Assembly (NCBI GenBank): GCA_048594675.1
Contig: JBMDWQ010000018.1
Span: forward strand, 13,349-77,348
Length of the DNA: 64,000 bases
Reading direction: 5' to 3'
From: Microbacterium sp.
GTDB taxonomy: Bacteria; Actinomycetota; Actinomycetes; Actinomycetales; Microbacteriaceae
The notes under the pieces were generated by a model, which was given only the letters and a program-made list of their open reading frames with translations, was not told the DNA's origin and searched no databases. This document shows, one piece after another, positions 16,550 through 33,289 of this stretch. The translations under genes were made by a program, and so were the position numbers. Numbering within the stretch: position 1 is the stretch's first letter; each line of letters opens with the position of its first letter.

Positions 16550-17626
16550 ATGCCCACGCTCGATCTGACCGCCTCCTCGGTGGAGCTCACCCGCGCTCTC
16601 TGCGACATCCCGAGCGTGTCCGATGACGAGACTGCGCTGGCGGATGCGATCTACGCGGCGGTATCGGCCTACCCCCACCTCGAGGTGGAGCGCGACGGCG
16701 ACACCATCATCGCGCGCACCTCACTCGGGCGCCCGCAGCGAGTGGCGATCGCCGGTCACATCGACACCGTCCCGATCAACGACAACCTCCCCACTCGCGA
16801 AGTCGAGGAGGACGGCCAGGCGTACCTTTGGGGCCGAGGCACGGTCGACATGAAAGGGGGAGTCGCCGTGCAGCTCAAGCTCGCCGCCGAACTGAACGAC
16901 CCCCGCGTCGACCTGACCTGGATCTGGTACGACCACGAAGAGGTGGATTCCGCGCGCAATGCTCTGACGCGTCTCGTCGCGAGCCGGCCGGAGGTGTTCC
17001 AGGCCGACTTCGCCATCCTCGGTGAGCCCTCCAACGGTCAGGTCGAGGGAGGATGCAACGGCACCCTCCGCGCGGTCGTTCGCACCCACGGCGTGAGGGC
17101 GCACAGCGCACGTTCCTGGATCGGAGAGAACGCGATCCACAAGGCCGCTCCGATCCTGACCCGACTCGCGGAGTACCGCCCCCGCAACATCGAAGTCGAC
17201 GGCCTCGTCTACCGCGAGGGGCTCAACGCGGTCGCCATCCGCGGAGGCGTCGCGGGAAATGTCATCCCGGACCTCTGCGCCGTCGAGGTCAACTACCGAT
17301 TCGCCCCCAAGCGCTCCGGCGAGGAGGCCGCCGCCCACGTGCGAGAGGTCTTCGCGGGGTTTGACGTGGAGATCGTCGACGTTGCCCCCGGAGCCCGCCC
17401 GGGCCTCGACGCGCCGCTGGCTCAAGAGTTCCTCGCGGCCGTGGGCGCCGAGCCGCGGCCCAAATACGGGTGGACCGACGTCGCGCGGTTCTCCGAGCTC
17501 GGCGTTCCCGCCGTGAACTTCGGGCCGGGCGATCCTCACCTCGCCCATCACGACAACGAGCGCGTCCCGGTGGCGCAGATCCTGGCCGTCGAAGAGGGCC
17601 TGAGAGCGTGGCTGACGGCGCGCTGA
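16550..17626 (+). CDS. dapE: Succinyl-diaminopimelate desuccinylase
   Basis: [36 protein letters not shown]; leaderless TAGACT-N7-ATG. Confidence 0.95.
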
Positions 17627-18828
17627 GCGCGCTGGCGTGGGGACGGCTGCGCGCTGCCCCTGCATTCGCGCGCATCGCTCTGGTCTACCTCGCCGCGCGG
17701 CTGATCACGACCGGCTTCCTGCTGCTGGCGGCGGAGCTCTCCGGACCTGGCTCCCGCTTCGGCGAGCAGGCCACGCTCGGCTCGTTCGTCATGGGCTGGG
17801 ACGCGGAGTGGTACGGCTTCATCGCCGGCCACGGGTACCCGAGCGATCTGCCGCGCGACGACAGCGGGAACGTCGCCACCAATCAGTGGGCGTTCATGCC
17901 GCTGTTCCCCTTGATCGCCCGGATCGTGGGTGCTCCCTTCGGCAACTACGGAGCGGGTGCCCTCATCGTCGCGCTCGTTGCGGGGTATCTCGCGGCGCTG
18001 GTCCTCCACGCGATCCTCCGGGATCGAATCGGTGAGGGCGCCGCGATGTGGGCCGTCGTGTTCTTCGTCAGCGGACCCCTTGCGGCGCTCTTCCAGGTCG
18101 GATACGCCGAGTCGCTCTTTCTTCTGTGGCTGTTGTGCGCATTGTGGTGCATCCAGCAGCGCCGGTTCGGATGGCTCTATCTGCTCATTCCCCTCATGGG
18201 ATACACGCGCCCCGGAGTCCTCGCCTTCTCACTCTTCCTGGCGCTTTTCGGAATCTGGAGATGGTGGCAGCGGCGCACAGAGCCGCTTGCCGTGAGAGAG
18301 GTCATCCACATCGTGACGCTGGGCCTCTGGGCCGCCGTCATCGGGTTCTCGTGGCAGTGGATCGTGGCGGCGGTGACCGGCGATCCCAACGGATACCTGG
18401 AGACGGAGCTGAGCTGGCGCCGCGCGTGGACGGGGGAGTCGGGTGGCTTTGTCCCGTTCGACGGGTTCATCCGGGCCGCCGGGATCTGGTTCCCGCTGTG
18501 GGGTCTGCCCGCGGAGTGGGGCTACGTCGCTCTCGGGCTCGGTGTCGCGGCCGTCGCGGGCCTGTTGATCTTCGCGCCGCATGTGAGGCGGCTGGGGGTC
18601 GAAGTACGGCTGTGGTCGGGGAGCTACGTCGTCTATCTGCTGGCCGTTTTCTTTCCGCAATCGAGCATTTTCCGGCTCCTCCTGCCGCTGTCTCCGCTGC
18701 TGGGCGCCCTCGCTGTTCCCCCGTCGCGGTTGTGGCGTGCCGCGGTGCTCGGGGCCTGCCTGTGCGGCCAGTGGTGGTGGGTCTACAACATGTATGCCGT
18801 CGCCTCCACGTATTACCAGATTCCGTGA
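17608..18828 (+). CDS. Polytopic GT-C fold glycosyltransferase (PIG-V / mannosyltransferase-like)
   Basis: WDAEWYGFIAGHGYP, AFMPLFP and YAESLFL motifs plus about 10 TM helices; overlaps the dapE 3-prime end by 19 nt. Confidence 0.68.
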   Translation: MADGALSALAWGRLRAAPAFARIALVYLAARLITTGFLLLAAELSGPGSRFGEQATLGSFVMGWDAEWYGFIAGHGYPSDLPRDDSGNVATNQWAFMPLFPLIARIVGAPFGNYGAGALIVALVAGYLAALVLHAILRDRIGEGAAMWAVVFFVSGPLAALFQVGYAESLFLLWLLCALWCIQQRRFGWLYLLIPLMGYTRPGVLAFSLFLALFGIWRWWQRRTEPLAVREVIHIVTLGLWAAVIGFSWQWIVAAVTGDPNGYLETELSWRRAWTGESGGFVPFDGFIRAAGIWFPLWGLPAEWGYVALGLGVAAVAGLLIFAPHVRRLGVEVRLWSGSYVVYLLAVFFPQSSIFRLLLPLSPLLGALAVPPSRLWRAAVLGACLCGQWWWVYNMYAVASTYYQIP

Positions 18829-18877: not shown

Positions 18878-18899
18878 TGTCGGCCGGGACGGGTAAACT
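18878..18899 (+). promoter_or_regulatory. PafBC-type (RecA-independent DNA-damage) promoter of the DUF3117 gene
   Basis: TGTCGG(18878-83)-N10-TAAACT(18894-99), an exact match to TGTCGG-N10-TA-N3-T. Confidence 0.7.
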
Positions 18900-18928
18900 T
18901 GTCGGGTACACGACGAAAAGGAGCCGCA

Positions 18929-19102
18929 ATGGCAGCCATGAAGCCGCGAACCGGTGACGGACCTATGGAGGCCGTGAAGGAGGGACGCCTGATCATCGTG
19001 CGCGTTCCTCTGGAAGGCGGCGGACGTCTCGTCGTCTCGGTGAACGACGACGAGGCGAAGGAACTCCACAGCGTTCTCGGTGAGGTCGTCGGCGCCGCCT
19101 GA
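18929..19102 (+). CDS. DUF3117 small protein (57 aa)
   Basis: MAAMKPRTGDGPMEAVKEGRLIIVRVPLEGGGRLVVSV is the conserved actinobacterial family sequence; RBS AAAGGAG. Confidence 0.92.
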   Translation: MAAMKPRTGDGPMEAVKEGRLIIVRVPLEGGGRLVVSVNDDEAKELHSVLGEVVGAA

Positions 19103-19113
19103 CCTCCCCCGCA

Positions 19114-19147
19114 GACGAGAGGCCGGTCTTCGGACCGGCCTCTCGTC
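19114..19147. terminator. Bidirectional hairpin terminator
   Basis: Perfect 15-bp stem gacgagaggccggtc/gaccggcctctcgtc, c(UUCG)g loop, between convergent genes. Confidence 0.8.
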
Positions 19148-19190
19148 GTGTCTCGGCCGAAGGGCCGGGAGTGAGGCCGCGGCTACCGCG

Positions 19191-33267: not shown

Positions 33268-33289
33268 TGTCGGCGCAGAGCATTAGCGT
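33268..33289 (+). promoter_or_regulatory. PafBC-type (RecA-NDp) leaderless promoter of adnAB
   Basis: TGTCGG(33268-73)-N10-TAGCGT(33284-89)-N7-ATG(33297). Confidence 0.78.

Follow-up and report, generated by a model that had tools for sequence, protein, structure and literature searches.

The closest described counterparts of the promoter analyzed here are the PafBC-dependent (RecA-NDp) promoters of mycobacteria, of the recA P1 type, which carry the same bipartite element, tGTCgg-N10-tA(N3)T, and no -35 (PMC8635444; PMC6789036). The published PafBC consensus, tGTCgg(N10)tA(N3)T, acts by sigma adaptation, and in its logo only GTC exceeds 50% conservation (PMC8635444), so that variants such as TGTCGC and TGTCCG may also work; both occur among the PafBC candidates of M. 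tuberculosis (PMC8151990). The M. tuberculosis candidate lists also take in rpsR, rplI, and fmt (PMC8151990), and because PafBC regulons hold ribosomal-protein and other housekeeping genes, membership in such a regulon is weak evidence of a repair function.

The closest described relatives of the protein are Rv1211 of M. tuberculosis and MSMEG_5081 of M. smegmatis, which belong to the same Pfam family, DUF3117, and share with it the invariant N terminus (MAAMKPRTGDGP), the GGGRLVV core, small size, abundance, and a single copy per genome. Two published claims about the family are absent from the first-pass annotation of our locus: Rv1211 has been described, from biochemical assays, as a "calmodulin-like protein" or CAMLP (PMC4215301), and infection by several phages reportedly requires MSMEG_5081/MAB_1350, escape mutations mapping to the tail spikes (conference abstract, PMC12908700), which points to the cell surface. 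One identical DUF3117 sequence is found in 73% of 929 Streptomyces genomes in a pan-proteome study (PMC13118837), MSMEG_5081 yields a MALDI-TOF peak in M. smegmatis (PMC11912119), and Rv1211 is among the most abundant proteins of M. tuberculosis, its LFQ intensities being about 2-6e9 and those of its neighbors 1e7-1e8 (PMC8151990 supplement). Mitomycin C does not induce Rv1211 in wild-type M. tuberculosis (log2FC -0.33), the values in a recA mutant go from +0.20 to -0.23, and the lower level in a pafBC knock-down with mitomycin (-1.63) was unflagged by the authors and may be indirect (PMC8151990).

In mycobacteria, the DUF3117 gene lies directly 3' of Rv1209-tagA, and the order TagA, DUF3117, GT4 glycosyltransferase (Rv1210-Rv1211-Rv1212c) is also that of a Mycobacterium-type locus in our sample (L099). 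Of the Rv1209-tagA pair, the first gene is marked as a PafBC candidate and both are up with mitomycin C (PMC8151990 Table S7); we note this neighborhood as a second, independent link to PafBC-type transcription, with Rv1211 itself showing no measurable induction. The supplement describing the M. smegmatis PafBC regulon (PMC5656591) makes no mention of MSMEG_5080-5082.

The DUF3117 locus and its promoter region

The window, by which we mean the whole 64-kb stretch of DNA that was analyzed, comes from a draft Microbacterium genome (3.3 Mb, 69% GC, 93% complete). It contains a gene of 57 codons plus stop (18929..19102, +) whose product matches Pfam DUF3117 (PF11314) over its full length (E 1e-25, 89.6 bits against a gathering cut-off of 25, profile positions 1-50 of 50), is closest to proteins of Microbacterium species, and has no model in NCBIfam. 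A phylum-wide sample had DUF3117 in every one of its 23 Actinomycetes genomes, whereas the approximately 278 genomes from other classes had none, and DUF3117 looks like a class-defining mini-protein of Actinomycetes; residues 1-12 and the GGGRLVV stretch (G30-V36) are invariant across the class in the alignment.

Upstream of this gene, a PafBC-type -26 element, TGTCGG (18878..18883, +), matches the tGTCgg of the published consensus exactly and is separated by 10 nt from the -10 box TAAACT (18894..18899, +), which recurs as TA[AG]ACT and forms the conserved core of the Microbacterium DUF3117 promoter (TGTCGG-CCGGGACGGG-TAAACT, 18878-18899, +). The first-pass annotation had read TGTCGG-N10-TAAACT as a PafBC promoter motif, and the element does fit tGTCgg(N10)tA(N3)T (PMC8635444); the motif therefore stands, and only the distance from TAAACT to the start codon has to be corrected, from 30 nt to 29 nt, because the ATG lies at 18929. 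The start of transcription is predicted at approximately 18905-18906, and a Shine-Dalgarno sequence, AAGGAG (18918..18923, +), lies 5 nt upstream of the ATG, where GAAAGGRGN is kept in nearly all DUF3117 orthologues. We note that a second copy of TGTCGG (18900..18905, +) immediately follows the -10 box, forming a direct repeat of the -26 box at the predicted transcription start, with no TANNNT at N10 after it. This second copy is common to the sister species G498 and the relative G336, the latter of which has no upstream box.

At its 3' end, the gene is followed, nine bases past the stop codon, by a terminator-like hairpin (19111..19151, +) with a perfect 15-bp stem (arms 19114-19128 and 19133-19147), a UUCG loop, and 3 further pairs. 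The free energy over 19095-19165 is -43 kcal/mol (z = -3.96 against shuffles), in agreement with the earlier description of a 15-bp UUCG hairpin closing the gene. No U-tract follows the hairpin in the sequence; the hairpin itself is strong and its position is conserved, as a strong hairpin of differing sequence lies at the same position in 70 of 79 orthologous loci. Hairpins without a U-tail are common in high-GC actinobacteria. The hairpin sits between convergent genes, the neighbor being an O-methyltransferase gene on the opposite strand. Just 5' of the DUF3117 unit, we also note a gene for a 452-aa multi-pass membrane protein (17470-18828) that belongs to no Pfam family and whose sole match is a weak, sub-threshold one to a "cell surface glycopolymer formation protein" model.

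PafBC genes and PafBC-type sites in the genome

The same motif occurs once more in the window. A search for TGTCRG-N10-TANNNT returned two sites in the 64 kb, against 0.10 expected, and none of 100 shuffles contained at least two. The second site (33268..33289, +) is a nearly leaderless PafBC-type promoter, separated by 7 nt from the downstream start codon (ATG, 33297) of a 1034-aa AddA/AddB-like ORF, which is followed by a 1132-aa UvrD/AddA-like ORF, so that the two constitute an adnAB-type pair. The first-pass annotation had named adnAB as the only other exact match in the window and used it as an internal positive control, which therefore holds.

The presence of pafBC in the genome, on which the promoter reading had been made to depend, was borne out by tandem WYL genes adjoining tatC (contig C57:25972-27932). 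Their products correspond to PafB and PafC of known structure: E values of 1e-26 to 1e-41 were obtained against the two halves of Arthrobacter PafBC (crystal structure 6SJ9) and against the PafB and PafC chains from M. smegmatis in 7P5X. A Pup ligase (PafA/Dop family) was not detected in the 93%-complete assembly, and this genome appears to have kept PafBC without pupylation.

Genome-wide, the motif occurs 37 times, and about 25 of these sites lie 6-7 nt ahead of a gene's start codon; we estimate that chance accounts for about 5 of the 37, of which roughly one would be at a true promoter. Approximately 25 classical repair and replication genes have the motif upstream, and a profile search confirmed 10 of the targets as DnaE, RadA, exonuclease III (XthA), an SRAP/YedK-like protein, SbcD, LigA, UvrB, UvrA, HolB, and AdnA. 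Because the start codon lies 6-7 nt past the -10 at almost all of the PafBC-type sites (for example, on C55, C64, C248, and C269), the damage regulon would be essentially leaderless. The motif is likewise abundant in relatives, with 11-112 matches per genome in all 25 tested against 0-17 with a reversed control. As an aside, the identical motif TGTCGGACCCGGAACCTAGACT, that of the ligA promoter, lies near the ends of two contigs (C202:102 and C235:33094), which is probably an assembly overlap or duplicate.

Compared with the mycobacterial promoters, then, this genome is alike in having pafB and pafC and in that the motif drives repair genes, and it differs in having no detected Pup ligase. The DUF3117 site itself departs further from that model. 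It is among the few leadered PafBC-type sites of the genome, with a 5'UTR of about 24 nt and a Shine-Dalgarno sequence; its -10 is TAAACT and not TAG/TAC-N-CT; and, as described below, this -10 is conserved independently of the box, which only a few percent of species possess.

Distribution of the box among relatives

The prediction that the motif would be conserved before DUF3117 orthologues did not hold. No PafBC motif was found within 150 nt upstream of DUF3117 in 80 orthologous loci, mostly of Microbacteriaceae, or within 200 nt upstream in 22 other Actinomycetes from the phylum-wide sample (Streptomyces-sized and Mycobacterium-type genomes among them), even when NANNNT was accepted as the -10. 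Within Microbacterium, 6 of 401 species genomes carry exact TGTCGG at N10, and their spacers are of five different kinds; base composition predicts about 0.14 such genomes. Close relatives with the same -10 and 5'UTR read TGTCGG (G498), TGTCGC (G622), TATCCG (G336), or TCTCCG (G407) at the box position, and 93% of the Microbacterium species and every other lineage sampled are without the box. Because most relatives lack it, the box says little about the function of the DUF3117 protein.

The -10, by contrast with the box, is widely kept: TA[AG]ACT lies 25-40 nt ahead of the ATG in 94 of 101 Microbacterium genomes (about 93%), and this conserved housekeeping core of the promoter works without the box in nearly all relatives. 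Other Microbacteriaceae have GATAAT (GGGATAAT) at the -10 position, with a TT at -24/-23 that resembles a -35. We also observed that GGGATAAT is common to distant Actinomycetes; it is situated about 30 nt from the ATG in Microbacteriaceae and about 70-100 nt from it in the distant loci L086, L092, L093, L101, L103, and L104, and it recurs farther upstream in Streptomyces-sized genomes as well. In these six loci, GGGATAAT is followed on its 3' side by a conserved long 5'UTR (GAAGCAATGTGTTCGATGCCGGTG...), possibly a regulatory leader. We considered an RNA hairpin around GATAAT/TAAACT in place of a promoter, on account of inverted repeats that were apparent by eye, and rejected it when RNAalifold gave no consensus structure for 37 sequences. 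Around the DUF3117 -10, neither a further conserved element nor an RNA structure was detected.

When the requirement was relaxed to TGTC, a positional signal emerged in the genus. TGTC lies at N10 upstream of the DUF3117 -10 in 30 of the 401 Microbacterium species genomes (26 distinct sequences), at N9 in 13, and at N11 in 11, whereas 16 control spacings gave a total of 21, or about 1.3 each, close to a composition expectation of 1.15. TGTC is thus about 25-fold commoner at the exact PafBC spacing than at control spacings in Microbacterium; these counts are of species and not of independent events, as several of the TGTC bearers form small clades. Most of the TGTC-bearing promoters read TGTCGT, TGTCTC, TGTCCG, or TGTCCC instead of TGTCGG. 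The sharp peak at the canonical spacing indicates that PafBC input at the DUF3117 promoter is probably real but labile.

Predicted fold and interpretation of the locus

The first-pass annotation had likened the protein to PC4/Whirly-type single-stranded DNA binders, and the predicted structure does not bear this out. The AlphaFold2 model, built on a 20-sequence alignment (pLDDT 84.8), has a flexible N terminus, β-strands at residues 14-18, 21-27, and 33-38, and a helix at 40-55. Foldseek searches of the PDB, run with two models, returned no match at E <= 0.001. The best E-values, 0.2-0.4, were for FlaG, Sso7d, and Mop/TOBE proteins, all non-significant; Pur-alpha appeared once (probability 0.15, rmsd 14 A), and neither PC4 nor Whirly was among the matches listed. 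Moreover, the protein has no Phe, Trp, or Tyr and is slightly acidic, which makes it a poor fit to a PC4-like single-stranded DNA binder. It does resemble the small β-proteins Sso7d/Sac7d and Mop/TOBE in having a three-stranded β-sheet packed on a C-terminal helix (TM 0.47-0.56), but with non-significant E-values of 0.2-1 and no sequence similarity, and we claim no membership in these families.

Nor did the sequence return a relative of determined structure. A PDB sequence search with the DUF3117 protein gave nothing at E <= 10, so the solved ribosome and RNAP complexes show no member of the family. With regard to the calmodulin-like activity published for Rv1211, no EF-hand was detected in the window protein, for which a Pfam scan at E <= 0.01 gives DUF3117 alone, and the predicted β3-α fold is not helix-loop-helix. 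The mycobacterial gene differs from ours in its setting as well, as it lies between tagA and the GT4 glycosyltransferase gene; the 200 nt searched upstream of it contain no PafBC box, and mitomycin C does not raise its expression.

We propose that the DUF3117 unit would be a monocistronic housekeeping mini-gene of about 240 nt, made up of a sigma-A promoter that has a -10 only, a short leader (about 24 nt) carrying a strong Shine-Dalgarno sequence, the ORF, and a hairpin terminator. Its product belongs to the Rv1211/MSMEG_5081 family, whose members are highly conserved and normally abundant. This strain and its sister species have TGTCGG at the exact PafBC position, -28 to -23, in the spacer ahead of the conserved -10. 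PafBC, activated by single-stranded DNA, would most likely dock at this TGTCGG and adapt sigma-A, and the docked protein would add a DNA-damage boost over an already high basal expression. We infer both PafBC binding at the site and damage induction there from the sequence, and we put the probability that the exact box confers some damage-responsive boost in this strain at roughly 0.55. The PafBC input would be a labile, lineage-specific add-on, present in roughly 8-13% of Microbacterium species and absent in all other Actinomycetes sampled.

The main competitor to a damage-responsive boost is chance juxtaposition, in which TGTCGG falls by accident in the spacer of a -10 that owes its conservation to something else, expression of the gene is wholly constitutive, and PafBC does not act on it. 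Several observations agree with this: the -10 is kept whether or not the box is present, the box itself is missing from all 80 and all 22 orthologous loci searched and is replaced in near relatives by TATCCG or TCTCCG, the site is atypical among the PafBC sites of the genome, the M. tuberculosis orthologue Rv1211 is not induced, and by our composition estimate roughly one TGTCGG per genome should fall by chance at a genuine -10. Pure chance does not, however, predict the peak of TGTC at N10 (30 genomes against about 1.3 per control spacing) or the recurrence of exact TGTCGG in 6 genomes with different spacers against about 0.14 expected, and we regard chance juxtaposition as possible but rather doubtful. 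Alternatively, TGTC at -26 may belong to another regulator or promoter feature of Microbacterium that only mimics a PafBC box, as might be suspected from the predominance of TGTCGT, TGTCTC, TGTCCG, and TGTCCC and from the enrichment at N9 and N11. Such variants still fit PafBC, however, given that only GTC is conserved above 50% in the published logo, and the surroundings of the -10 offered no further conserved element or RNA structure; we therefore consider a mimic improbable.

The first-pass annotation had gone further and proposed DUF3117 as an unrecognized, damage-inducible repair factor of the PafBC regulon, binding single-stranded DNA in the manner of PC4/Whirly. The exact motif, the recurrence of the box within the genus, the position of the mycobacterial gene directly 3' of the PafBC-candidate Rv1209-tagA operon, and a weak, non-significant likeness to Sso7d (TM 0.47, E 0.4) all lean toward that proposal. 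It is opposed by the lack of conservation of the box and by the behavior of Rv1211, which is constitutively very abundant and not induced by mitomycin C. Further, the structural analogy fails for want of a significant match, of PC4 or Whirly among the matches listed, and of any aromatic residue in a slightly acidic protein; no DNA-repair genes are syntenic with DUF3117 in the window; and the published phenotype directs attention to the cell surface, since phages need the protein to infect and escape through tail-spike mutations. We conclude that a role of DUF3117 as a repair factor is unsupported and very unlikely. A broader and more speculative idea is that the -26 box has been repeatedly gained or retained at the Microbacterium DUF3117 promoter because extra DUF3117 benefits the cell after DNA damage. 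Together with the mycobacterial Rv1209-tagA neighborhood, this would link DUF3117 to the LexA-independent damage response, with the protein serving, for instance, as an adaptor of the nucleoid or the envelope that cells need while they recover; we hold this to be rather unlikely.

Overall, few small proteins of the class Actinomycetes are as conserved and abundant as DUF3117, for which a regulatory handle would be useful. The PafBC handle described here is confined to a few Microbacterium lineages, and the finding does not identify a new repair factor. What the case mainly illustrates is that changes in six bases can readily bring a -10-only promoter into the PafBC regulon or remove it, a point of modest interest for regulon evolution.
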